Origin: Rhodothermales bacterium
GTDB lineage: Bacteria > Bacteroidota > Rhodothermia > Rhodothermales > BA12
Direction: 5' to 3'
Length of the DNA stretch: 64,000 bases
NCBI GenBank assembly: GCA_963841855.1
Contig: CAWJEJ010000001.1
Coordinates: 1,042,789 to 1,106,788 of the forward strand
The notes under the pieces are model-generated. The model was not told where the DNA came from. It saw only the letters and a list, made by a program, of their open reading frames with translations, and ran no database searches. The translations under genes and the position numbers were made by a program. Positions 993 to 58,510 of the stretch are shown in pieces (position 1 is the first letter of the stretch; the number at the start of each line of letters is the position of its first letter).

Positions 993-2309
993 ATGTCTAT
1001 TCTAACGCAACCTCTGATCACGACGTCGGGCGACGGCGGCCCCGTCCGTGGCACGGGCGAGGGCAAAGACGTAGAGCGCGCGCCGAAACCGATCTGGCGC
1101 AAGTGGCTGCCCTACGGCATCGGCGCGCTCGTCGTGCTGCTGCTGATCGCGGCAGCGGTGTGGGCGGGGCGCGGCGGCCAGCGGCTCCGCGTCGACGAGG
1201 ACCGGCTGCGGATTTCGACGGTGGCTAGCGGCGATTTCCTCGAATACGTCGCCGTCAACGCGACGGCTCAGCCGCTGCGGACGATCTACCTCGACGCCGT
1301 CGTCGGTGGGCAGGTGCGCGAACGGTTCGTCGAGGAAGGCGCCATTGTCGAAGCGGGGACACCGCTGTTGCGCTTGGAAAACGACGACCTGACGCTGCGC
1401 CAGATGCAGTCCGAGGCGTCGATGGCTGAGCAGGCCAACGGCATCCGCAACACGCGACTGGCGCTCGACCAAAACCAACTCAACCTGTCGCAGCAGCTCG
1501 CCCAACTCGACTACGATTTGGGCCGAGCCCAGCGCGAACACGACCGGCTCAGCGGCCTGTTCAACCAGGGTCTCGTTCCCGCACGTGAGTACGAAGCCGC
1601 GCGCGACGAACTGGCCTACCTCAGCCGCCGCCGCGACCTGACGCTCCAAAGCCACCGCCAAGACTCGATCACCCGGTCCACTCAGATCGACCAGATGCGC
1701 GGCCAGATGAATCGGTTGCAAGACAACATGTCGTTCCTCGGCCAGACCGTCGACAACCTGATCGTGCGCGCTCCGGTCGCCGGACAGCTGACGAGCCTGG
1801 ACGCCGAGATCGGCGAGCTCAAAGGAGCGGGCAGCAGATTAGGTCAAATCGACATGATCGGCGGCTTCCGGCTGGTCGCGCAGATCGACGAGCATTACGT
1901 CGCACGCGTCGCGCCTGGCCAGCAGGCGACGGCGACGATCAGCGGGACCGACTACGAACTCGAAGTGCGCAAGGTCTACCCCGAAGTCGCCAACGGCCGC
2001 TTTCAGGTCGACCTGGTGTTCTTGGGCGAGGCGCCGCCGTCGCTGCGTCGCGGACGATCCGTACAGGTGCGACTGCAACTGGGTCAGCCCGAGCAGGCGC
2101 TGCTCCTCGAACGCGGCGGCTTCTTCCAGGCGACGGGCGGGCGCTGGGCCTACGTCGTCCGGGGCGGCGAGGCCGTACGCGTACCGATCACGCTGGGCCG
2201 CCAGAACCCGCTCTTTTTCGAAGTCACTGACGGCCTCGCGCCCGGCGACCGCGTCGTGACCTCCAGCTACGACACGTTCGGCGACGCCGACGTGCTGGTG
2301 CTGAACTAG
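993..2309 (+). CDS. HlyD/MacA-type periplasmic adaptor (membrane fusion protein)
   Basis: 438-aa ORF with one N-terminal TM helix (YGIGALVVLLLIAAAVWA), a lipoyl-like hairpin (GGQVRERFVEEGAIVEAGTPLLRLEND), a long coiled-coil stretch and a beta-rich C-terminus. It sits directly upstream of an ABC ATPase. Confidence 0.8.
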   Translation: MSILTQPLITTSGDGGPVRGTGEGKDVERAPKPIWRKWLPYGIGALVVLLLIAAAVWAGRGGQRLRVDEDRLRISTVASGDFLEYVAVNATAQPLRTIYLDAVVGGQVRERFVEEGAIVEAGTPLLRLENDDLTLRQMQSEASMAEQANGIRNTRLALDQNQLNLSQQLAQLDYDLGRAQREHDRLSGLFNQGLVPAREYEAARDELAYLSRRRDLTLQSHRQDSITRSTQIDQMRGQMNRLQDNMSFLGQTVDNLIVRAPVAGQLTSLDAEIGELKGAGSRLGQIDMIGGFRLVAQIDEHYVARVAPGQQATATISGTDYELEVRKVYPEVANGRFQVDLVFLGEAPPSLRRGRSVQVRLQLGQPEQALLLERGGFFQATGGRWAYVVRGGEAVRVPITLGRQNPLFFEVTDGLAPGDRVVTSSYDTFGDADVLVLN

Positions 2310-2481: not shown

Positions 2482-3235
2482 ATGGAAACGCCCACGATCA
2501 CTCCGACTGCTCCGGCTGCTGTTAAAAACGGCGGCGGCACGCTCATCCAGACGCAGGACATGACCAAGGTGTACCGCACCGAATCGGTCGAGACGCAGGC
2601 GCTGGCGGGCGTCTCGCTCGGCGTCAACCGGGGCGCGTTCGTGGCGCTGATGGGGCCGTCCGGCTGCGGCAAGTCGACGCTGCTCAACATCTTGGGCATG
2701 CTCGATCAGCCGTCCAACGGCAAGTACCTGTTCGACGGGCAGGACATCGCGCAGGCCGGGGAGTCGCAGCGGGCCAAACTGCGGCGTGGACGCATCGGGT
2801 TCGTGTTTCAGAGCTTCAACCTGATCGACGATCTGACGGTCTACGAAAACGTCGAGTTGCCGCTGCTCTACCTCAAAACCGACAAGGCCGAGCGCAAGGC
2901 TAGGGTCGAAGCCGCCCTGGACCGCGTCGCGATGCTGCACCGTCGGAGCCACCACCCGCAGCAGCTATCGGGCGGTCAGCAGCAGCGTGTCGCCATTGCA
3001 CGCGCCGTCGTCGCCTCTCCCCCGCTCATTCTCGCTGACGAACCGACGGGTAACCTCGACTCCAAGAACGGCGCCGAGGTGATGAAGCTGCTCGTCGAAC
3101 TCAACGAGGCCGGGCACCACTATCGTGATGGTGACGCACTCGGCCATCGACGCCGAGTACGCGCACCGCGTCGTCAACCTGTTCGACGGGCGCATCGTGA
3201 GCGAGCACTTCGCCAACCAGACAGTCGCGGCGTGA
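2482..3235 (+). pseudogene. ABC transporter ATP-binding protein (MacB/LolD-type), interrupted by one frameshift
   Basis: Walker A GPSGCGKST, signature LSGGQQQRV and Walker B LILADEPT are all present. After ...ELNEAG the frame is lost at the G run 3112-3114. The next forward frame, entered at ggc 3113-3115 (one base into the original frame), reads [40 protein letters not shown] and stops at 3233-3235, which is the normal C-terminus of this family. Confidence 0.8.
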
Positions 3236-3338
3236 CCTCGCTGGCTGCGTTCAACCGCTCCCGCACCGACGGGGCATGCCGCGTCGCCCACGCGGACACC
3301 GCCCGCCTCCCTTAGCCTCCACGCTCTGGCGTGATTCT

Positions 3339-3366
3339 CTCCGACGCAGCATGCTGCGTCGCTACA
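3339..3366 (+). repeat. REP-like element, A type
   Basis: ctccgacgcagcatgctgcgtcgctaca. It ends 11 nt before the proposed GTG start at 3378. Confidence 0.8.
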
Positions 3367-3377
3367 TCTCTCTGATC

Positions 3378-5778
3378 GTGCACGCCATTCGCCTCGCTTT
3401 CCGCCGGTTGCGCCGGCATCCTGGGTTCACGCTGCTCAACGCGTCGGGACTGGCGATTGGGCTGGCGTGCGCGCTGCTGGCGCTGTTCTACATCCGCGAC
3501 GAGATACGCGTCGACCGCTTCCACGAGGATGCCGACCGGATCTACTCGGTCGTCATGACCGACACGCTGCTCGCGCCCGAGACGCCGTCGACGCCCTACC
3601 CGCTGGGGCTGGCGCTGGCGGATCAGGCCGAGGTGACGAGCGTGATGCGGCGCAGCAGCGGTTGGCCTACGCGGATGCGGATAGCAGGAGCGACAAGCGA
3701 AATCCGCCCGCGCGTGCTGATGACCGACGCGGGCTTCTTCGACTTCTTCTCGTTTCCCCTCGTCAGCGGATCGCCTCAGCCCCTCGCCGATCTGAGCGGA
3801 CTGGTGCTCACGCCCGAGACCGCGCAGATGCTGTTCGGCGATGCGAATGCGATGGGCCGCGTCGTCGAAGTATTCAAGCCGTGGCCGACTCCGACGTGGG
3901 TGCCGCTGACGGTGACGGCCATCGCCGCTCCGCCACCCGCGCACTCGACGATTGGGTTTGGTGCCGTCGCCCGCTTCGAGTCGTTGCGCGACGGCTACGA
4001 CGACCCGGACAGCTGGGGCATGAGCAGCTACCGCAGCTACGTCCGGCTCGCGCCCGAGCATCGACGGGGCCGCGTACGCTGCCGGACTTCCCAGCCGCAT
4101 CCAGGCCGTCGACCCCGTCGCCGATCACGTGGGGCGGTCGCCGGTTCGCCGCGCTGCCGATGACGGATTTCTACCTGTCGGGCATCGAGGAGAGCAGCAC
4201 GTTCACGGGCAAGGCAGGCTACATGAAGCTGTTCGGGGCGATTGCGCTCGTCATCCTGCTGATCGCGATTCTCAACTACGTCAACCTCGCCACGGCGAGC
4301 GGCATGCGGATGGCGCGCGAAGTCGGCGTGCGCAAGGCGGTCGGTTCGGGGCGCGGGCAGGTGGCGCGCGGGCTGCTCGTCGAGGCGCTCCTGCTCGTCG
4401 GGCTGAGCTTTGCGCTGAGCGTCGGGCTGGTGCTGCTGGCGACGCCTCTGGTCAACGCGTTCTTCGACAAGGGCATCGTGCTCGGCTGGGACGCGCTGCC
4501 GGTGTGGGCGGGCGCGTTCGGGCTGATGATCGGTGTCGGGCTGCTGGCGGGCGCGTATCCGGCCCTCGTGCTGTCGCGCTTCTCTCCGGCGCGCGTGCTC
4601 AAAAGCGGACCGCAGGGTGCCATCGGCGGGACGTGGCTACGCAGAGGACTGGTCGTGACGCAGTTCGCGGCGACGATTGGGCTGCTCGTCTTTACGGGCT
4701 TCGTCTTCCGCCAACTCGACCACGTCGAGAGCCGCTACCCGATGCCGGACGACAGCCGGCTCGCCGTCCTCTCGCTCGAGCGCGAGTGGGGCAAGCGATC
4801 GGCGACCGTCGAACAGGCGCTGGCCGACCTGCCCGGCGTGATCGGAACGGCGGCGTCGACGGGCGTTCCCGGACAGATCGGCAACCGCTACGGCTTCCTC
4901 CCCGACGGCCCGGACGCCGAGTTCGACATCATCGCCGGATTCTTCGGCGACCGCGACTTCGCCGACCTGCTCGGCATGCCGACCGCCCACGAATCGACCG
5001 ACCTCTCGGTCCCCGGCGCGCTCCGCCTGTTCGTCAACGAAGCGGCGATGCAGCGCTCGGCCCTCGACTGGTCGCCCGGCGTGATCTTCCCCGTCGGCGT
5101 GGTCGAAAACGGCGTCGACGGAAGCAAGTCGACCGAGCTGGCGGGCGTGCTGACGGACTTCCCCTACGAATCGCTCCGCGACCCGATTGCGCCGCTGTTC
5201 TACGCCGAAGCGCCCGACACGTCGCGCTTCCTCTACGTCGTGTCCCGAGTGGCGAGCGACAGCGTCGGCGCGTTTGGGGCCGCGCTTCCTGCCGTCTGGT
5301 CGCAGTTCAGCAGCAGCGCGCCCGAGGTCGAGTTCGTCGACGATTACGTGGCCGAGTTGTACGAAGCCGAGACCAAACTGGCGCAACTGGTGACGCTGCT
5401 CGCCATCGTCGGCCTTCTGGTGGCGTGCCTCGGCCTGTTCGGACTGGCGGCCCACGCGGCGGCGCAGAGGCGCAAGGAAATCAGCGTCCGCAAGGTGCTG
5501 GGCGCAGGCGTCGGCCGGGCTGATCGGTCGGTTGTCGCGCGAGTTCGCCCTGCTCGTCGGCGTGGCGTTCCTCGTCGCCGCGCCGGTCTCGTACGTGCTC
5601 GTATCGGACTGGCTCGACGGCTTCGTCGACCGGACGTACAGTGGGTCCGGGCGTGTTCGCGGGCGTGCTGGCGCTGGTGCTCGTGCTGGCGCTCGTGACC
5701 GTCAGCTACCACGCGTGGCAGGCGGCGACGCGCAACCCCGCCGACGTGCTGCGCGAGCGAATAAAATCGGTGGTCTAG
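3378..5778 (+). pseudogene. duplicated MacB/FtsX-type ABC permease P1, at least 5 frame disruptions
   Basis: The start is inferred as GTG 3378 (VHAIRLAFRRLRRHPGFTLLN) by alignment to P2 MHTLRIAV and P3 MHSIRLAL. The paralog-like sequence can be followed only by switching forward frames near 4059, 4129, 5510, 5640 and 5755. Both FtsX modules are present (NYVNLATASGMRMAREVGVRKAVGS and LGLFGLAAHAAAQRRKEISVRKVLGA). Confidence 0.75.
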
Positions 5779-5826
5779 CTGGTCGTCTGCGGCCTGTTAG
5801 GCTTGCGACGGGACGTCACCTTCTTA

Positions 5827-5856
5827 GGGCGACGAAGGCGTCGCCCCTACACCTCC
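5827..5856 (+). repeat. REP-like element, B type (ggcgac-N-gtcgcc hairpin + cctaca)
   Basis: gggcgacgaaggcgtcgcccctacacctcc. The CTACA ends 10 nt before ATG 5862. Confidence 0.75.
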
Positions 5857-5861
5857 TGATC

Positions 5862-8270
5862 ATGCACACGCTTCGCATCGCTGTTCGCCGGTTGGTTCGG
5901 CATCCTGGATTCACGCTCGCTCAACGCGTTCGGGTCTGGCCGTCGGGCTGGCGTGCGCGCTGCTGGCGCTGTTCTACATCCGCGACGAAACGCGCGTCGA
6001 CCGCTTCCACGCGATGCCGACCGATCCTCGCCGTCACACTGACCGACAGCACGCTGACGAATGGCGATACCTACCTGTCATATCCGGTCGCCGATGCGGT
6101 CGCCAATCTGCCGCAGGTCGAGCAGGCGATTCGGGTGACCGGGTCGCGAACGAGCCGGTTGCGGGTGCCGGGGAGCGATAGCGAGATCGAGAAGCGCCGT
6201 ACTGTTCACCGAGGCGGGCTTTTTCGAGATGTTCTCGTTTCCATTGTCGGCGGGCAATCCGTCCTCGGCACTGAGAGAGCCGAACGAGATCGTTCTGACG
6301 CCCAAGTCGGCGGCAGCGCTGTTCGGCGAGGCCGATCCGGTCGGGCAGACGGTCGAGTACTTCCGATCCGAGCTGGAACGGACCGGGCGAGTGGATTCCG
6401 CTGACCGTCACTGCCATCGCCCTGGCGCCGCCGCACCACTCGACGATCCAGTTCGAGTCGGTCGCCCGGTTCGAGGCGCGCAACGACGACACCTACGGCG
6501 ATCCGGACAGCTGGGGCAATCAGTGGCTCCAAACGTACGCGCGTCTCGTGCCCGGATCGGACGCTGCAGCGTTCGTGGCGGGCATGCCGGATCAGATGGC
6601 GAGCGCCGATCCCGAGCAACACCGACGACAGCTTTTGGGGCCAGCGTTACTACGTGCCCGTCCCCATCGCCGACGTGTACTTCTCGGTCGACCGGTATGG
6701 CAGCCAGTTCACTGGGCAAGCGGCGTTCATGCGACTTGTTCGGGCTGATCGCGCTGGCCGTCTTGATCATCGCTGTTCTCAACTACGTCAACCTCGCCAC
6801 GGCGCGCGGACTGCGGATGGCGCGCGAGGTCGGCGTGCGCAAAGCCGTCGGCGCCGGGCGCGGACAGGTGGCGCGTCAGACTGCTCGTCGAGGCGCTGCT
6901 GCTGGTGTCGCTCGCGTTCGTCGTCGCCGTCGGGATCGTGCTGCTGGCGCTGCCGCTGTTCAACACGTTCTTCGGCAAGAGAAGTCGTGCTGGGCTGGGA
7001 CGCGACTACCGGTCTGGGCGGGCGCGCTCGTCCTGATGCTCGACGTCGGGCTGCTGGCGGGCGCATATCCGGCCCTCGTGCTGTCGCGCTTCGACCCGGC
7101 GCGCGTGCTCAAAAGCGGACCGTCGGGTGCCATCGGCGGAACGTGGCTGCGCAGAGGACTTGTCGTGGCGCAGTTCGCGGCGACGATCGGGCTGCTCGTC
7201 TTCACGGCTTCGTCTTCCGGCAACTCGACTTCATCCAGAACAGCTACCAACTCCCCGACGACGCGCGGCTAGCCGTCCTGCGCACGCCCGACGAGTGGGG
7301 CAACGCGCACGCCAAACGATCAAAGCCGCGCTGGCCGATCTACCGGGCGTGCAAGGCGACCGCAGCGACGAGTGCCGTCCCGGGAAGGGTCGGGATGCGC
7401 TTCGGCATTACGCAGGAAGGCAAGGAGCCGCTGATGATGGCCGTCGTGTCGGCCGACACGCGATTACATGGACCTGATGAGTCTGCCGATGGAGCACGAC
7501 GCGCCCATATCCGGCTCGGATTCGCCGACGCGCGTCTACGCCAACGAGTCGCTGCTGCGAGCGATGGACAAAGAGTGGTCGCCGGAGCTCACGATCCCGG
7601 TCGGCCCCAACGCGTACGGGGGCATGTCGTCGGGCGAGGCGTCGCCGCTGGCGGGCGTGATGACCGACCTGCCGTACGAGTCGCTGCGCGAGCCGATCCA
7701 GCCGATGTTCATCGCCGAGATGCCGGACACGACCGATTTCTCGTACGTCGTCGCCAAAGTGGGCGAGGCGACCTGGAGGCGTTTCAGGCCGCGCTGCCGG
7801 GCGTCTGGTCTCAGTTCAGCGGCAAGGCGCTCGACGTGTCGTTCGTCGACGATTACGTCGCCAAGCTGTACGAGGGCGAGACCAAACTGGCCCAACTGGT
7901 GACGCTGCTGGCGTTCGTCGCCCTGCTGGTGGCGTGCCTGGGTCTGTTCGGACTGGCGGCGCACTCGGCGACGACCAAGCGCAAGGAGATCAGCGTGCGC
8001 AAGGTGCTCGGCGCGGGCGTGGCCGGGCTGATCGGTAGGCTGACGCGCGAGTTCGCGCTGCTCGTCGGCGTCGCGTTTTTGATCGCCGCTCCGGTCGCCT
8101 ACCTGCTCACGTCGCGCTGGCTCGAGGGCTTCGCCGATCGCACGCCGGTCGGTCCCGGCGTGTTCGCGCTCGTGCTGGGCGCGACGCTGCTGCTGGCGCT
8201 CGTGACAGTCAGCTGGCACGCGTGGCAGGCGGCGACGCGCAATCCCGCCGACGTGCTGCGCGACGAATAG
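5862..8270 (+). pseudogene. duplicated MacB/FtsX-type ABC permease P2, heavily frameshifted (about 13-15 frame switches by manual tracing)
   Basis: Starts MHTLRIAVRRLVRHPGFTL and ends ...NPADVLRDE at 8270. In between, the conserved sequence is spread over ORFs 5532-6404, 6229-7272, 6548-6748, 6654-8270, 7127-7477 and 7468-7902 in all three forward frames. By eye it is a close nucleotide match to P1 in blocks such as 7050-7240 versus 4541-4725. Confidence 0.75.
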
Positions 8271-8361
8271 GCGATTCCGTCCGCCCACGCACGGTCGGCT
8301 GTTCGGTGGCGGACGGTCGGCCGAGTCATGATTAGGCGACTGGGGCGCGGTTTCGAGGCGG

Positions 8362-8377
8362 CGGCACGGGCTTGGCG
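8362..8377 (+). promoter_or_regulatory. candidate sigma-54 -24/-12 promoter in the P3 leader
   Basis: CGGCACGGGCTTGGCG compared with TGGCACG-N4-TTGCW. GGCACG is present and the GG and GC dinucleotides are at the correct spacing; there is one mismatch in TTGC. It lies 85 nt upstream of ATG 8462. Confidence 0.3.
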
Positions 8378-8423
8378 CGGTGGTCGGGCGTCGGCTCGGT
8401 TTGCAGGGCTACTTCGACATCAG

Positions 8424-8456
8424 AGGCGACGCACGCGTCGCCCCTACATCACCTCC
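8424..8456 (+). repeat. REP-like element, B type
   Basis: aggcgacgcacgcgtcgcccctacatcacctcc. The CTACA ends 13 nt before ATG 8462. Confidence 0.75.
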
Positions 8457-8461
8457 CGTTC

Positions 8462-10788
8462 ATGCATTCGATTCGTTTGGCTCTTCGTCGCATTCGCCGC
8501 CGTCCGGGGTTCACGCTGCTTACGGCGTCGGGGCTGGCGCTTGGGCTGGCGTGCGCGCTGCTGATCGGTAGTTACCTCGCGGGCGAGTGGCGCTACGACA
8601 CGCACTACATCGGACTCGGATCAACTGGTGCGCGTGGCGACGGTCTTCGACGAGGAGGTGGTGACGGTGAGCGCTTCGGCGGTCGCTCCAACGCTGATCG
8701 CGGACGTGCCGACGGTCACGCACGCCGTCCGCATGTTCGAGGCGTCGGCATTTGGGACGCCCTTCGTCGAGGCCAACGGGCGCGGGTTCGAGGAGGCCAA
8801 CGAGGTCTGGTTCGCCGACGAAGGCTGGGCGGACGTGATCGGCACACCGCTCGTCGCTGGAGCGGCCAGACTGATCGACCCGGCCACAGTGCTCCTATCT
8901 GAGCACACGGCTGAGCGGTACTTCGGATCGGCGCAAGCCGCCGTCGGGCAGACGATCACGATGGACGCGCGGCGCGTGTTGACGGTAACAGGCGTCTTCG
9001 CCGATGCACCCGAAACATCGCACATTCGCCCGCGCATCGTGGCGTCGTGGTATAGGATGAGCCAGATCGAGCCGTCGTGGACGCGCGTCAACTACGCCAC
9101 TTACGCGCGCCTGACCGACCGTGCCGACCTCGCATCGGCCCAAGCCGCCCTCAACCAGATCGCCGACGCGCTAGGCGAAGACGAACGCGGATTCAGCCAA
9201 CTACTATTCCAGCCCGTCGACCAGATCCACGCGACCGAGAGCGGCTCGCGTCTGCGGTACCTGATGCTGTCGTTGTGTCGTACTCGTCATCGCCGCCGTC
9301 AACTTCGTCAACCTGACGACGGCGCGGCAGGCCGAGCGAACGTCGGAAGTCGGCGTGCGCAAGGCCGTGGGCGCACCTCGGAGCCTGTTGATCGGACAGT
9401 TTTTGGGGGAGTCGTTGGCGATTACGAGTGTGGCGGGCATCGTCGGCGTGGGGCTGACGGCGCTGGGGCTTCCGTTCGCGGAAGCCATTGCGGGGCGCCA
9501 CGTGCTGCCGCCGGCCGAATGGGGCTGGCTCGTGGGGCTGGCGTACATAGGGACGACCCTCGTCGTCGGCTTGCTGGCGGGTCTCTATCCGGCGTTGGCG
9601 CTGTCGAGCGGATCGTCGCTCCAGGCGCTGCGCGGACGCATCGTCGGGCCGAGAGGTGGGGTGCAGTTGCGCCGGATCCTCGTGACGGCGCAGTTAGCGA
9701 TCTCGCTGGCGTTCGTGGCCGGAGCGCTGATCGTTCAGCAGCAGCTCAGCTTCTTAAGAACCGCCGACCTGGGCTTCGATCGCGCCGCAACCGTGACGGT
9801 CCCGCTGGGCGGATGGGAAGGGCAGAAGTTTGAGCGCGTCCGGGCCGAGCTAGGCGACGTACCCGGCGTCTTGGGCATCGCCGCGCTGACGAGTCTCCCC
9901 GGCGAACACCATGGCGGGTACAGCGCCACGTGGCCCGGACGCGAGGGCGACGAGTTGGCGCTGCGCGCGTCCGTCGCAAGTAGGGAAGCAATCGACGCGT
10001 TGGGGCTGCGTATCGTGGCGGGCGAAAGTCTGCCTGCTGTCGCTACCCCAGACTCCGTCGGGGCGTTTCGCTTCGTCGTCAACGAGGAGGTCGCGCGTGC
10101 CGTTGCCGGGTCGAACGAGGCGGCCATTGGCCATCCGTTCGTGATGAACGGGCGCGAGGGCGAGATCGTGGGCGTCGTCCAAGACTTCCACTACGCATCG
10201 CTGCACGAGGCCGTCGGCCCGTTCGTGCTCTTCAGCCAAGCCACGCCCTGGTACTCCGAACTCGTCGTGCGCCTGGCTCCCAACGCGCCCGGCGACGTGC
10301 TCGACCAACTCGCCGGAAGATGGAACGCAGCCGAGACGGGGCGCCCCTTCGTCTACCACTTCCTCGACGAGCAATTGGGCGATCTCTACGCCGCAGATCG
10401 TCGGCTGGGCAGCCTGGCCGGGCTGGCCGCGCTGGTCACCATTCTCGTCGCCTGCCTGGGGCTGTTCGGACTGGCCGCATTCTCGGTCGCCCGGCGGCGC
10501 AAGGAGATCGGCGTGCGTAAGGCGCTGGGCGCGGCGGCGGTCGGCATCGTCGGGTTGGTATCGCGCGAGTTTGCCGTTTTGGTCGGGCTGGGGTTTGTGA
10601 TCGGCGCTCCGGTCGCGTGGGCGTTCGGCGTGTGGTGGAAAGAGGGGTTTGCGTATTCGGCGGGCGGAGCGGGGTGGGCGATTGTGGCGTCGGGCCTGCT
10701 CGTGCTGGCGCTGGCGCTGCTGACCGTCAGCTACCACGCCTGGCGCGCCGCGACGCTCGACCCGGCCCTCGTACTCCGCGACGAGTAG
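8462..10788 (+). pseudogene. duplicated MacB/FtsX-type ABC permease P3, two frameshifts
   Basis: Starts MHSIRLALRRIRRRPGFTLLTASGLALGLACALL. The frame changes near 8609 (into the ORF 8628-9833 frame) and near 9280 (into the ORF 9355-10788 frame, which restores VVLVIAAVNFVNLTTARQAERTSEVGVRKAVGA). The C-terminal module LGLFGLAAFSVARRRKEIGVRKALGA is present, and the protein ends LVLRDE. Confidence 0.75.
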
Positions 10789-32081: not shown

Positions 32082-32490
32082 GGCGAAAAGAGAAAAGTGT
32101 ACCGGGGCGGCTGATTAGCATAACCAATGAACTCTTTCGCGTCAACTACGCGATTACGGTATACGAATCAGTCGGTGCTGCCTGGCGCATCGGAGAATAA
32201 GTCCGAGACCACACGTTGCGTTAGGCTCTGCCTGAGAAGGCAGCGGCCAGACGAGCACAAGTCAGGGGCCACTTTGCCGAGGCTCGCCGAGTGCAGCGCC
32301 GGAAAAACTGCCCCCTGGCCCCGCGCAGCTCCCGAATTGCTGGTTCAGGAGCAGGCCAACCGTTCGCCGACGCGCGCAGACTGTCCGGTTACGGACACCG
32401 CGCCACCGGGAAGGCCGCTCTCGCACGGCTGGAGGCGACGGCATGGCGTTGGCTTTGGTCCGAGGCACCGCCCAACCGACCGCTGCTCTC

Positions 32491-35007
32491 ATGCTCGCCT
32501 CCGCCTTCCGCCGACTCCGCCGCCACCGCCTCTACACCGGACTCAACGTGTTCGGGTTGGCGCTCGGGTTGGCGTGCTGCCTGCTCATCGCCCTGTTCGT
32601 GCGGTCCGAAATGTCGGTTGATGACTTTCACCCGGACAGCGACCGACTCTACCGCGTCAGCCAGCTGAGCGACGGGCCGGGGTCGGAGTTGTGGGCGTGG
32701 ACGGGCGGCGGGTTGTCCCCGAAATTGAAGGCCGACTTTGGCGAGATCGAGCGCGTCGTCCGGGTGATGCGGGACCCCCGGGATGTATACGTGCCGGACG
32801 CCGACGCGCTAGGACTTCCCGCCGAGCCGTCGCGCGAGACGAGCCTGTTCTTCGCCGACCCCGCCTTTTTCGAGGTATTCGGCTTTCCTCTCGTCCGCGG
32901 ACAGGCCGACCGCGTTCTCGATGCCACCGACGCCGTCGTCCTGACCGAGAGCACGGCGCGGCGGCTGTTTGGCGATGCAGATCCGATGGGCCAGACGCTC
33001 GTCGTCGGCGGGCAGACGACGCTGCGCGTGACCGGCATTGCCCAAGATCCGCCGCCGGGCACGCAGCTGCAGTTCGACCTGATCGGCGGGATGTCCGTCT
33101 TCAAGACGCTCAACCGGTTTCCGACCGATGCCGAGTTCGCGTCGTATTGGTGGCCCGACGTTAACACGTTCGCGCTGCTGGCGCCGGGCGCGGACGTGCA
33201 GGCGCTCCAGGCCAAGATGCCCGAGTTCGCGATCCGGCATAGGGGCGAAGAGAGCGGAGCCCAGCACGCGCCCGTTTTGGAAGCGATCGCCGACACTTAC
33301 CTCTATTCCGACGCGACCGGGGCGATCGGCGAATCGGGCAGCCTCGATGCCGTCCGCACATTCACGTCTATCGCGCTGGCCGTCCTGCTGCTGGCCGCGA
33401 TCAACTTCGTCAACCTGACGACGGCGCGCGCCCAGAGTAGGGCCCAAGAAGTCGGCGTGCGCAAAGCCGTCGGCGCCGGACGCGGCGAGCTGATCGCGCG
33501 GTTTCTGGCCGAGTCGGTCGTGCTCAGTTTGGTCGCGCTGGCTCTGGCGTGCGCGCTGGCGTGGCTGGGCGTCGGACTGCTCGAAAGCGTGACCGGCCGA
33601 GCGCTCGACGTGTCCGCGCTGATCACGCCGTCGTTTGCGCTGGCCGCCCTAGGCGCGACGCTGGTCGTCGGACTGCTGGCGGGTATCTACCCGGCGTTCG
33701 TGCTGTCGGGCTTCGAGCCGGTACGCGTGCTCAGAGGAAGCCGCACGTCAGTCGTGGGAGGCGGCAAGGGACTGACGCTCAGACGCGCGCTGGTCGCGAC
33801 GCAGTTCGTCGTGTCGATTGCACTCGTGGCGGCGACGCTGGTCGCCTTGCAGCAAAACCGATTCTTGCGCACGGCTGATCTGGGTTTCGACAACGCGCAG
33901 ACCGTCGCCGTCCAGATCAAGGGCGATCAGGGCTGGGACGCGTTGCGCGATGCGTTGCGCGCGACGGACGGCGTCGAGTCCGTCACGGCGGCGAGCCTGC
34001 GGCCTGGACTGGGCGCAACGCAGGGCCTCCCCTACCGCGTCAGCGGCGACGGCTCGGACCCCGGCGGCTACGGCTCGAACAACCCGCAGGGCGGCGGAAA
34101 CCTGGCCTACGCTTCGGTCACCGACGATTTCGACGAGCAGATGGACCTGCGCGTGCTCGCCGGGCGCACGTTCGGACCGGATTTCCCAGGCGATCAAGGC
34201 GTCGTGCCCGAGCAGACAGCCGGGCGCGTGATGTTTCACGTCTTCGACCGCGGACTGGTGATCAACGAGTCGGCTGCGCGCGTTCAGGGCTGGACGCCTG
34301 ACGAGGCGATCGGCAAAAACTATCGCTTGTTCGCCTATGAGAACGAGGTGTATTTCAGCGACATTCGAGGCACGGTCGTCGGGGTAGTCGAGGACTTCCA
34401 CGTCGCGCCCCTGGGGCAGCCGATCGAGCCGCTGATGCTGATGCGCGCCGAAGCAGGCGACTGGTTTTCGGCCAGCTGGGCGCTCGTCCGCGTAGCTCCG
34501 GGCGACGCAGGCCAGCGCATGGACGCGCTCCGCTCGACGTTTCGATCAGTCGCTCCCAACGCCCCCTTCGTCGCCGACTTCCTCGACGATGCACTGTCCG
34601 ATCGCTATGCCGAGTACGAACGCACCGGCACCCTGCTGGCCCTGTTTGGGATTCTGGGGCTGGGCATCGCTTGCCTCGGTCTCTTCGGACTCGTCGCCTA
34701 CGCCGCGCAGAGCCGCCGCCGCGAGATCGGCGTGCGCAAGGTGCTCGGCGCGAGCGTCGGCCGCCTGACGTGGCTGCTGCTGCGCGACTTCGCCGTCCTG
34801 TCGCTGCTGGCTTCGCTGATCGCCCTGCCGCTGGCGTGGTGGGCGATGAGTCGCTGGCTCGACGGCTTCGCGTACCACACCGAGCTCCATCCGCTCGTCT
34901 TTGCAGGCGCCGCTTTGGTCGTCGCCGCCATCGCCCTGACCACGGTCGCCGGGCACGCCATCCGCGCCGCCACATCCGACCCAACGACCGCGCTGCGCGC
35001 CGAATAA
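32491..35007 (+). CDS. duplicated MacB/FtsX-type ABC permease P11
   Basis: Internal ATG of ORF 32443-35007 (MLASAFRRLRRHRLYTGLNVFGLALGLACCLLIAL). Modules INFVNLTTARAQSRAQEVGVRKAVGA and LGLFGLVAYAAQSRRREIGVRKVLGA. Ends ALRAE. Confidence 0.85.
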   Translation: MLASAFRRLRRHRLYTGLNVFGLALGLACCLLIALFVRSEMSVDDFHPDSDRLYRVSQLSDGPGSELWAWTGGGLSPKLKADFGEIERVVRVMRDPRDVYVPDADALGLPAEPSRETSLFFADPAFFEVFGFPLVRGQADRVLDATDAVVLTESTARRLFGDADPMGQTLVVGGQTTLRVTGIAQDPPPGTQLQFDLIGGMSVFKTLNRFPTDAEFASYWWPDVNTFALLAPGADVQALQAKMPEFAIRHRGEESGAQHAPVLEAIADTYLYSDATGAIGESGSLDAVRTFTSIALAVLLLAAINFVNLTTARAQSRAQEVGVRKAVGAGRGELIARFLAESVVLSLVALALACALAWLGVGLLESVTGRALDVSALITPSFALAALGATLVVGLLAGIYPAFVLSGFEPVRVLRGSRTSVVGGGKGLTLRRALVATQFVVSIALVAATLVALQQNRFLRTADLGFDNAQTVAVQIKGDQGWDALRDALRATDGVESVTAASLRPGLGATQGLPYRVSGDGSDPGGYGSNNPQGGGNLAYASVTDDFDEQMDLRVLAGRTFGPDFPGDQGVVPEQTAGRVMFHVFDRGLVINESAARVQGWTPDEAIGKNYRLFAYENEVYFSDIRGTVVGVVEDFHVAPLGQPIEPLMLMRAEAGDWFSASWALVRVAPGDAGQRMDALRSTFRSVAPNAPFVADFLDDALSDRYAEYERTGTLLALFGILGLGIACLGLFGLVAYAAQSRRREIGVRKVLGASVGRLTWLLLRDFAVLSLLASLIALPLAWWAMSRWLDGFAYHTELHPLVFAGAALVVAAIALTTVAGHAIRAATSDPTTALRAE

Positions 35008-55585: not shown

Positions 55586-56064
55586 CCGCTTCCGGCTCTC
55601 TCGACCTCCGCACGATTCCACTCGACGCGCTTCCGTGGCCCCTGGTGCACGAGGCCGATCCCGAACGCGCGCACGTCGAGGGCTACATCGCAGAGGCGTC
55701 GCGGCTGGGCGCGTACGCAGGCGACACCATTGTCGGCATCGCCATCGTCGGCCTGATCGAGCCGGGCGTGGCCGAGTTGCACGCCATCGCCGCCGAGCGC
55801 GCGTACCGGCGGCAGGGCGTTGGGCGGTGGCTGCTCATCAACGCGCGCGAGGAAGCGATCCGCTTGGGCGCCCGGACGCTGCGCGTGGCGACCGGAAACT
55901 CTAGTCTGGACCAGTTGCGCTTTTACCAACGCTCCGGCTTCCGCATGGTCAGCATCGACCGGGGATACTTCGACACCGCTTTCGCCGAACCGCTCGTCGA
56001 GGACGGCATCCGCTGCCGAGACCGCGTCTGGCTCGACATGCCGCTGCCTGCCGCCGCCCTCTAA
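55582..56064 (+). CDS. GNAT-family N-acetyltransferase
   Basis: 160 aa with an acetyl-CoA-binding motif context (RRQGVGRWLL) and ...FYQRSGF. The start overlaps the permease stop (ATGA). Confidence 0.75.
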   Translation: MTASGSLDLRTIPLDALPWPLVHEADPERAHVEGYIAEASRLGAYAGDTIVGIAIVGLIEPGVAELHAIAAERAYRRQGVGRWLLINAREEAIRLGARTLRVATGNSSLDQLRFYQRSGFRMVSIDRGYFDTAFAEPLVEDGIRCRDRVWLDMPLPAAAL

Positions 56065-56163
56065 GACGAATGAAACTACATAGTGAGGCAGCGACTGTCG
56101 ACAAAGAACAGTACCTTTCGCGATCTGCCGTTTCTTCGTCCATGTCGATTACAGATTGATCTT

Positions 56164-56403
56164 ATGCGGACTCTGCTGCTCACTTCCCTCCTACTCTTCG
56201 CAGCCTGCGATTCAACCGATCCCGAACCTAATATTTCGGCGGTAAAACACATCCAGTCGGTCCAACTGGTCGCTGGGGGCGACTCGGTCCGTTTCAGCAT
56301 GCGACGGGCATCAGGTTTGCAGCCTCTGCAGTACCGACCTACCAGATTACGTCTTCTTCTGCCGACATCCGTGCTGAGACTCGGGGAGAGCATACGCTCG
56401 TAA
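56164..56403 (+). CDS. lipoprotein N-terminal fragment (probably the 5' part of one frameshifted gene together with 56403-57365)
   Basis: MRTLLLTSLLLFAACDS has a lipobox. After ...GGDSVRFS the sensible sequence appears to continue in the next frame (ATGIRFAASAVPTYQITSSSADIRAETRGEHTLV), which is open from 56232 and runs into MWALSG at 56403. Confidence 0.5.
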   Translation: MRTLLLTSLLLFAACDSTDPEPNISAVKHIQSVQLVAGGDSVRFSMRRASGLQPLQYRPTRLRLLLPTSVLRLGESIRS

Positions 56404-57365
56404 TGTGGGCACTCAGCGGTACGGTCGCAGAGGTTCGCATCAAAGCCAGCCTCGACGGGGAAACTGCCGAAGCATCGTTCGAGGCGGCTTCCCGCGACAA
56501 GTATGTTCGCCCTTATTCGCGCGCTATCGCTATCCTCGTACCCGATACTGCGCTGTACGTGCAGCGGGACACGCTTCGTTTCGACCCGGCATTGCTCTTT
56601 ACGATTGCGCCGGGACGTGTAGCTTCTTACACCGTCAAAGACCAAGGTCACGTATCCGCCTGGATCGACGGGGAGTTAAAAGCCTTCCCGACCGGCGAAA
56701 GCGGTGGAACGATAACAGTGCGCGCTCAAGTTGAGAAGGACATGGCTGAGGCGACGTTCACTCTTACAGGAGAAACGGAATGGTGCGCCTCACCTCCCGA
56801 TGGGGCGTCCGATTTTTTCCATATACCCAGCAGATCAACTATCACATATCGCTACACGAACGAAAGATCTTCTAGGGGTTTTAATTTAGTCACAGGAAAA
56901 TCATACAGATTTGAGGACAATTTTACCGGAATAATCACTTGGGATACCGACAAATATTTCTGCGAGTTAGGCAAATCAAGGGGGAGCATTAGAGAAACAA
57001 TAGAAGGGCGTAGCGTCCAGCAGTCTTTCTCGGATGAGAATCTCGTCAGTGCCGATACATCTGAAACCACTACGGTGGCGAGCGATGTCGGCCTTGTGGT
57101 GGTGGACGAGATTCCGCTAGTGCTTGGTTCTGTCATAGTACTCGACAGATGGTCTTCTGAGGAGCCAGTCGCTCGATGGTATGAGACTTCGATGACCACC
57201 ATTGAAGTAAGACGCTGTCCGTACCGAGGCCCTTGGGGAGAAAACTACTGCGCCACCTACTATTTGCGTAAGGACGCGCCACCGGACTCAATCCATGTCT
57301 CCTATAAAAAATCTGATCGCAGTTCGTCCTCCTCCAGATCTATACGCCTGGAGCGTTTGGACTAG
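56403..57365 (+). CDS. hypothetical protein encoded in a low-GC islet
   Basis: 320-aa ORF. The second half is markedly AT-rich (the line 56881-56940 is 18/60 GC by my count). No domain recognised. Confidence 0.55.
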   Translation: MWALSGTVAEVRIKASLDGETAEASFEAASRDKYVRPYSRAIAILVPDTALYVQRDTLRFDPALLFTIAPGRVASYTVKDQGHVSAWIDGELKAFPTGESGGTITVRAQVEKDMAEATFTLTGETEWCASPPDGASDFFHIPSRSTITYRYTNERSSRGFNLVTGKSYRFEDNFTGIITWDTDKYFCELGKSRGSIRETIEGRSVQQSFSDENLVSADTSETTTVASDVGLVVVDEIPLVLGSVIVLDRWSSEEPVARWYETSMTTIEVRRCPYRGPWGENYCATYYLRKDAPPDSIHVSYKKSDRSSSSSRSIRLERLD

Positions 57366-57484
57366 CGTAGCGGTAGAATCTTCCGCCAACAACAATCTAT
57401 TTCGACCAACCGAGCTTTTATGACTTCAGGCACCGCGTTTGCCTGACCGATGGACACCCCACCTCGCCCCCCGGCTCCATCTCC

Positions 57485-58510
57485 ATGAAGCAGCTCTCCC
57501 AGAACGAAATCGACCTGCTGCTCGACGTGCGCAGCCAGATGGACGACGCGCCCGGAGGCTACGACCTGGACGCGCTCGAAGGGCTGATGCAGCGCGAGAC
57601 CGAGCGCAGGGTACTGCCCTACAACTTCAAGCGTCCGCGCCTGTTTTCGCAGGACCAGATGCGCGTGCTCACCTACGTCCACGAGTCGTTCGCGCGCGAC
57701 TTCTCGGTCTTCCTCTCGGCCCAGTTGCGCACCATCGTCGACATCGGGCTGACGGCCGTCGATCAGGTGATGTACTCCGAATACGTCATGTCGAGCGCGC
57801 CGCCGGCGGCCATCTACGTCGCCGAGGAGACCAGTCTGAATCACAAAATCGTGTTCGAGTTCGACCCGCGGCTGGTCGTGTTCACGATCGAGAAGCTGTT
57901 CGGCGGGCAGGGGACGTTTCTCAAGAAGGCGCGCGAGGTCAGCCAGATCGAGCGGCGCATCATGAGTAAGGTGATGAACCGCTGCTTCGCCGAGCTCGAA
58001 AAGGCGTGGCGACAGGCGCAGGAAGTCAAGTTTAGAGAGGTCGCGTTCGAGACCAATGCCGAGTTCGTGCAAATCATCCCGGCCGTCGAGCCCGCCCTGG
58101 TCTGCACGTTCGAGGTGACGGTCTACGAACACAAGTCGTACCTCAACCTGTGCTATCCCTACCTGCTGCTCGAAAAGATGCTGGGCCGCGCCGGACTCAA
58201 GCAGTGGATCAGCGGCAACGCGGCCACGGTCCCGCCCGAACACCGCGAACGCTACGAAAACGAGGTGCGCAAAGTCGCCGTCGAGTTGCGCGCGATTCTG
58301 GGCAAGGCGATGGTTTCGCTCCAAGACGTGAGCGAGTTGCAGCCCGGCGACGTGATCCCGCTCGGCCGCGCCGTCAACGATCCCATCCAGGTATTTGCCG
58401 GTGAAGGACGCAAGTTCTCGGCTCTCCCCGGCCGCTCGGGCAAACGACACGCGCTGCGCATCCTGGAAGCGATAGCGCCTCCTCCTCAGTATTCGGATTC
58501 CAACGAGTAA
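57485..58510 (+). CDS. fliM: flagellar motor switch protein FliM
   Basis: 341 aa with N-terminal LSQNEIDLLL (CheY-P-binding-like) and YNFKRPRLFSQDQ. Confidence 0.85.
   Translation: MKQLSQNEIDLLLDVRSQMDDAPGGYDLDALEGLMQRETERRVLPYNFKRPRLFSQDQMRVLTYVHESFARDFSVFLSAQLRTIVDIGLTAVDQVMYSEYVMSSAPPAAIYVAEETSLNHKIVFEFDPRLVVFTIEKLFGGQGTFLKKAREVSQIERRIMSKVMNRCFAELEKAWRQAQEVKFREVAFETNAEFVQIIPAVEPALVCTFEVTVYEHKSYLNLCYPYLLLEKMLGRAGLKQWISGNAATVPPEHRERYENEVRKVAVELRAILGKAMVSLQDVSELQPGDVIPLGRAVNDPIQVFAGEGRKFSALPGRSGKRHALRILEAIAPPPQYSDSNE

Follow-up and report, generated by a model that had tools for sequence, protein, structure and literature searches.

Gene content of the locus

We analyzed a stretch of 64,000 nucleotides (nt) from the genome of a Rhodothermales bacterium (the window, G000:C1:1042789-1106788), focusing on an efflux locus in which the ATPase gene and the first three permease genes (P1 to P3) are interrupted by numerous frame breaks. 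The genome has 3.72 Mb in 5 contigs and a GC content of about 66%, and distant homologues bear names that suggest a Rhodothermales bacterium. The locus is ordered as an adaptor gene, an ATPase gene, and an array of adjacent duplicated FtsX-type permeases of around 800 amino acids (aa), all on one strand (Table 1). Searches with NCBIfam profiles, and with Pfam on the homologues, found the adaptor, the MacB/LolD-like ATPase, and the FtsX-domain permeases to be contiguous, as in MacB-type ATP-binding cassette (ABC) transporter loci. The same gene order is seen in a metagenome contig (L014, see below), and the homologues carry the Pfam domains PF12704 (MacB_PCD) and PF02687 (FtsX).

This organization is that of MacAB-type tripartite ABC efflux systems with ADOP-like permeases, i.e., an adaptor, then an ATPase, then permeases of about 800 aa matching TIGR03434 (ADOP) end to end. 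The intact permeases P4 and P5 cover the full length of this profile with 295.9 and 322.3 bits, and neither reached its cut-off of 622.3 bits in the NCBIfam profile search. Since scores of 296-322 bits are far below 622, the permeases of this locus differ from the curated members of the family and should be regarded as their relatives. Underlying the breaks is an ordinary tripartite efflux locus of the MacAB-like type, presumably functional, whose permease paralogs are ADOP-like.

In the table of open reading frames (ORFs), the ATPase and P1-P3 are scattered over all three forward frames. The adaptor upstream aligns to its orthologue in a congeneric genome (G002) with 89% aa identity and zero frameshifts in a frameshift-aware alignment. 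Downstream, P4 has 82% aa identity to its homologue G2_E, with no internal frameshift. Each of the permeases P4 to P10, as well as a further one at 32443-35007, is encoded by one unbroken ORF, with sizes of around 800 aa from P4 onward.

Frame breaks in the ATPase and the first three permeases

To place the breaks, we combined protein-to-DNA alignments with frameshift states and pairwise DNA alignments. The orthologues came from G002 (syntenic stretch L011), from another congener, G003, where the region is represented by two contig ends (L012 and L013), and from L014, a metagenome contig of the ENA encoding the P2 orthologue P0001. The paralogs in the window are 30-37% identical, which is too distant for tracing P2, and plain tblastn searches with them badly under-counted its breaks. 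We identified 25 frame-breaking events between positions 3112 and 9277: 1 in the ATPase, 5 in P1, 17 in P2, and 2 in P3. They comprise 20 one-base insertions, 4 one-base deletions, and one deletion of 5 nt. A previous reading of the DNA made from the sequence only (the sequence-only reading) had proposed at least 20 breaks in these four genes, at least five of them in P1; both minimal counts hold, and nearly all of its coordinates match ours.

Once the frames are corrected, the four genes are well conserved. At the break in the ATPase gene, G002, G003, and L014 have CCGGG-ACGACGAT and the window has CCGGGCACCACTAT; the flanks on both sides of this break show 98% aa identity to the G002 orthologue. 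The corrected P1 has 77% aa identity to G2_B and 93% to its orthologue in L014, and its last event throws the stop codon TAA at 5762-5764 out of frame. The corrected P2 is 82% identical in aa to P0001, an intact protein of 797 aa, and the corrected P3 is 83% identical to G2_D. The density of breaks is maximal in P2, with around one per 110 nt between 5915 and 7762. It declines across gene boundaries in both directions, upstream through P1 to the last part of the ATPase gene and downstream into the first part of P3, as expected of a dip in read support.

A scan independent of homology gave a similar picture. We used a codon-usage model trained on 292 long ORFs of the genome and a seven-state Viterbi path, and found 17 frame switches without a stop codon at 3110-9274, nearly at the coordinates of the sequence-only reading. 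Given the genome-wide rate of candidates, the chance of finding 17 of them in 6.2 kb is about 2e-16. In the remaining ~53 kb of the window, the scan returned only three candidates (18353, 23409, and 23447), all of which are ordinary gene boundaries. The earlier claim that the rest of the window is free of such breaks is thus borne out.

Table 1. Genes and frame breaks of the efflux locus (positions in the window), and patches of clustered frame-switch candidates in the genome (contig positions)
Feature	Position	Strand	Remarks
Adaptor (membrane-fusion protein) gene	993..2309	+	Intact; NCBIfam RND_mfp / DarC-like matches; upstream clean edge of the patch
MacB/LolD-type ABC ATPase gene	2482..3235	+	One surplus base; corrected stop 3233-3235
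ATPase break	3112-3115	+	One extra base
Permease P1 (duplicated FtsX/MacB_PCD, ADOP-like)	3378..5764	+	5 one-base insertions
P1 breaks	4053-4057, 4125-4129, 5513-5516, 5636-5637, about 5752-5757	+	One-base insertions
Permease P2	5862..8270	+	Patch centre; 13 one-base insertions and 4 one-base deletions
P2 insertions	near 5915, 5935, 6189, 6368, 6610, 6734, 6880, 6980, 7005, 7302, 7314, 7358, 7460	+	One base each (DNA alignment)
P2 deletions	near 6012, 6024, 7212, 7762	+	One base each (DNA alignment)
Permease P3	8462..10788	+	Two breaks; clean from 9280 to stop
P3 breaks	8610-8615; 9277	+	One extra base; 5-nt gap in a GT-rich stretch (DNA alignments to G003 and G002)
Permease P4	10980..13388	+	Intact, single 802-aa ORF; downstream clean control
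This locus	C1:1045.9-1052.1 kb		17 candidates; ATPase, P1-P3
Patch	C1:703314-710257		22 candidates; inositol-phosphate synthase, Gfo/Idh/MocA oxidoreductase, YcaO, xylose-isomerase-like protein, glycosyltransferase, PIG-L
Patch	C5:459328-466826 (plus 456.7-472 kb)		19 candidates; prophage structural genes
Patch	C4:601692-606510		14 candidates; tamB
Patch	C4:287102-291081		11 candidates; MltF-like transglycosylase
Patch	C5:114932-117558		9 candidates; nuoL and nuoM

Similar patches elsewhere in the genome

Over the whole genome, the Viterbi scan identified 543 candidates, of which 92 are in six patches of 2.6-7.5 kb each, totalling 32 kb (Table 1). Smaller clusters, with 4-8 candidates each, were found at about 19 further places. 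The ~355 scattered single candidates include ordinary gene boundaries, and only clusters are counted here as evidence. The direction of the shifts differs between the two groups, with a bias toward +1 among clustered candidates (125:63, p = 7e-6) and none among the scattered ones (185:170). The breaks are absent from the remainder of the window, as the sequence-only reading had it, but they are not unique to this locus, since five further large patches occur in the genome.

Profile matches (NCBIfam and Pfam) run across the predicted junctions in these patches, among others in nuoL, nuoM, YcaO, and a xylose-isomerase-like protein. Residues 59-426 of the reconstructed NuoL match profile positions 4-368, and residues 758-1245 match positions 1-485 of NuoM. 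Similarly, residues 1423-1778 match positions 2-325 of the YcaO profile, and the AP_endonuc_2 match covers positions 1-248. The gene nuoL is single-copy in this genome. The patch in tamB has the same frame-break signature as the efflux locus and differs from it in lying in a single-copy envelope gene. Since patches are also found in single-copy genes (nuoL/nuoM and tamB), the pile-up of breaks is not specific to the efflux locus.

Comparison with related assemblies

The lesions of the related assemblies were compared with those of the window. The P1 orthologue of L014 has four one-base indels of its own, at quite different positions. Over the ATPase and P1 (3.2 kb, 89% DNA identity), all coding indels between the window and L014 are of 1 nt, each breaking one of the two assemblies, and there are no in-frame indels of 3 nt between them in these coding sequences. 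Longer gaps, of 13-16 nt, occur only in the short spacer between the genes. In G003, a 5-contig assembly, it is the P4 orthologue (86% aa identity; L012 2532-4947, minus strand) that is broken, by nine frameshifts within about 600 nt, 8 of which are one-base insertions, with no stop codon. The orthologues of P3 in G003 and of P2 in G002 have one frameshift of their own each. We found no lesion common to the window and any of the relatives compared (G002, G003, and L014). The comparison with these relatives thus revealed lesions of one type that are private to each assembly, at differing positions and shifting from gene to gene.

The same region is also a place where assemblies end and gene content changes. 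The ends of two G003 contigs (L012, which is G003:C3, at its end 12442, and L013, which is G003:C2, at its start) flank P1-P2; one breaks off around 200 nt downstream of the ATPase gene, the other within the first part of P3. This indicates that P1-P2 could not be assembled in G003 and that assembly of the locus is difficult in this genus. In L014, other genes are found downstream of the P2 orthologue. In G002, an additional intact permease of 812 aa (L011 3616-6054), with no counterpart in the window, lies between the ATPase and the P1 orthologue. The copy number of the array thus varies within the genus. A further permease of L014 (14172-17805) is split in three gene calls of 455, 614, and 153 aa, likely by frameshift errors of that contig.

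Substitutions and stop codons

Genes undergoing decay are expected to accumulate stop codons and substitutions. We found no in-frame stop in about 2,630 corrected codons of the ATPase and P1-P3 in the guided alignment, in agreement with the sequence-only reading, which had noted the absence of stops and the conservation of the proteins. In these codons, 2.65% of random substitutions would create a stop. In bacteria, each indel is normally accompanied by several to ten substitutions. Were the 25 indels real mutations with 5 substitutions each, the absence of any stop would have a probability of 0.04; with 10 each, it would be 0.002.

The substitution patterns also lack a mark of decay. The ratio of nonsynonymous to synonymous substitution rates (dN/dS) between the corrected genes and their orthologues is 0.15 (L014) and 0.24 (G002) for P1, 0.19 for P2, and 0.165 for P3; the value for the adjacent, intact P4 is 0.167. 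We also ran a three-way relative-rate test with G002 as outgroup, in which P2 has 124 nt and 27 aa private changes in the window, against 197 and 47 in the intact orthologue of L014. The same test is balanced for P1, with 91 private changes in the window and 98 in L014. We thus saw no evidence in P1-P3 of relaxed selection, be it a dN/dS tending toward 1, stops, or a longer branch. Since even P2, the most broken gene, has no excess of substitutions, the damage at the locus consists of indels and nothing else. Genuine pseudogene decay, as in reductive bacterial genomes, may also leave several frameshifts per gene, but this locus differs from it by the lack of stops, of raised dN/dS, of an excess of private substitutions, and of lesions shared with relatives.

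The adaptor, unlike the ATPase and P1, has many more private changes in the window than in L014 (125 against 53 nt and 33 against 8 aa). Recombination may account for this, as may the L014 gene call, which is shorter, at 331 aa.

Spectrum of the indels

Real one-base indels usually result from replication slippage and are concentrated in homopolymers. DNA alignment could place 19 of the insertions, and no more than 4 of these lengthen a run, the runs in question having just 1-2 bases. The others are of types such as cagActg and cgaTcac. The sequence-only reading, which took some breaks for changes of run length and others not, is to be corrected in that most insertions are not of this kind. 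Homopolymer slippage as the source of the insertions can mostly be rejected, since most of them are outside runs.

The inserted base is an A in 7 of the 19 placed insertions, in a sequence of 66% GC. Four inserted bases (6368, 6610, 4125, and 6189) are in or beside GATC in the assembled sequence, a raw count from which we claim no link to a methylation motif. The GATC/A context may be an effect of basecalling.

Origin of the frame breaks

The 25 frame breaks at 3112-9277 are very probably local errors of a long-read consensus and not mutations of the organism, as judged from the alignments and scans above. They are small indels only, without nonsense changes or an excess of substitutions. The same signature is present in unrelated genes, single-copy core genes included, and the lesions are not shared with relatives, whose assemblies are broken elsewhere. 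The assembly most likely derives from long reads of a metagenome. The locus is probably one whose content varies between co-occurring strains, because G002 has an extra permease, L014 has different genes after P2, and G003 has a contig break. The consensus would be locally poor in a handful of patches of 2.6-7.5 kb, where spurious single bases, mostly insertions, were left in; at this strain-variable locus, low or mixed read support might be the cause. The patch studied here would be strongest over P2, tapering off through P1 to the last part of the ATPase gene and, on the other side, into the first part of P3. In metagenome-assembled genomes from nanopore reads, the residual errors are mainly indel frameshifts, which worsen at low coverage and inflate pseudogene counts (PMC8103633), and many genes described as pseudogenes are artefacts of assembly, varying with platform, assembler, and coverage (PMC11017572). 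Our observations resemble these indel errors of long-read or low-coverage data (PMC8103633; PMC11017572) in the single-base indels, in the proteins being intact after correction, in a patchiness independent of function, and in the fact that related assemblies differ in which genes look broken. They differ from them in the strong clustering in a few patches of 2.6-7.5 kb and in a bias toward insertions outside homopolymers.

Several points weigh against an origin in the consensus. The case for it is built on assembled sequences, and the sequencing platform is deduced only from the number of contigs and the error pattern. The positions of the inserted bases are uncertain by a few nt, the DNA identity of the alignments being 82-89%. 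We found no independent assembly of the same species, and the closest homologue of P2 among 5.8 billion proteins is 80% identical. Finally, slippage in a GT-rich repeat may have truly deleted the 5 nt that are missing at 9277.

This last event also figures in a mixed explanation, in which most breaks would be consensus errors and one or a few, e.g., the insertion in the ATPase or the 5-nt deletion in P3, would be real and silence part of the operon. The two events are the outermost ones and are isolated, and the one at 9277 differs in size and context. Still, both are inside the same patch of 6.2 kb, only size sets them apart from errors, and the identity to orthologues around them (98% in the ATPase, 83% in P3) comes without relaxed selection, so we find this combination unlikely. 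A very recent inactivation by around 25 small indels in the ATPase and P1-P3, before substitutions could accumulate, has in its favour that the breaks are present in the deposited sequence, that one of them removes 5 nt from a repeat-like stretch, and that the loss of copies may be tolerable in an array of accessory paralogs whose copy number is variable, as illustrated by the extra permease of G002. However, it demands 25 indels without detectable neutral substitutions or stops, most insertions are outside homopolymers, unlike in replication slippage, like patches strike the single-copy nuoL/nuoM and tamB, and the sister assemblies bear the same type of lesion in other genes and at other sites. 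We thus regard it as very unlikely. The sequence-only reading had linked such an inactivation to the duplication of P1 and P2. This link was rejected: both G002 and L014 contain separate orthologues of P1 and of P2, the duplication is therefore old, and there is neither an excess of substitutions nor a lesion shared with relatives. It would be extremely improbable that the patches are real in another sense, i.e., that a localized and insertion-biased mutational process recently struck several chromosomal tracts of 2.6-7.5 kb, this efflux locus among them, without raising the substitution rate; one might then think of error-prone synthesis during gap filling or of a population of defective genomes.

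The preferred explanation, consensus error, was also one of two options of the sequence-only reading, which attributed it to near-identical paralogs blocking the unique mapping of reads. Our results favour the error itself but not this cause. P1 and P2 are only 73.5% identical at the nt level, with 148 gap columns in their alignment, this is the best non-self match of the region, with no closer DNA copy elsewhere in the genome, and single-copy genes are equally struck.

Consequences for annotation

We conclude that the pile-up of frame breaks is a data-quality warning for this assembly and its sisters, and not a biological feature. In an annotation of the genome, the efflux ATPase, three permeases, nuoL/nuoM, tamB, and others will appear as fragments or pseudogenes, although these genes are most likely intact. 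It would be wrong to conclude from this assembly, or from sister long-read assemblies, that genes were lost, that respiration is reduced, or that efflux capacity is decaying. Such patches can be flagged inexpensively, and with no need of reads, by a whole-genome scan tracing the reading frame. The scan gave no frameshift candidate in the islet of the split lipoprotein gene (window 56001-58000), where the GC content is 0.56, compared with about 0.65 elsewhere.

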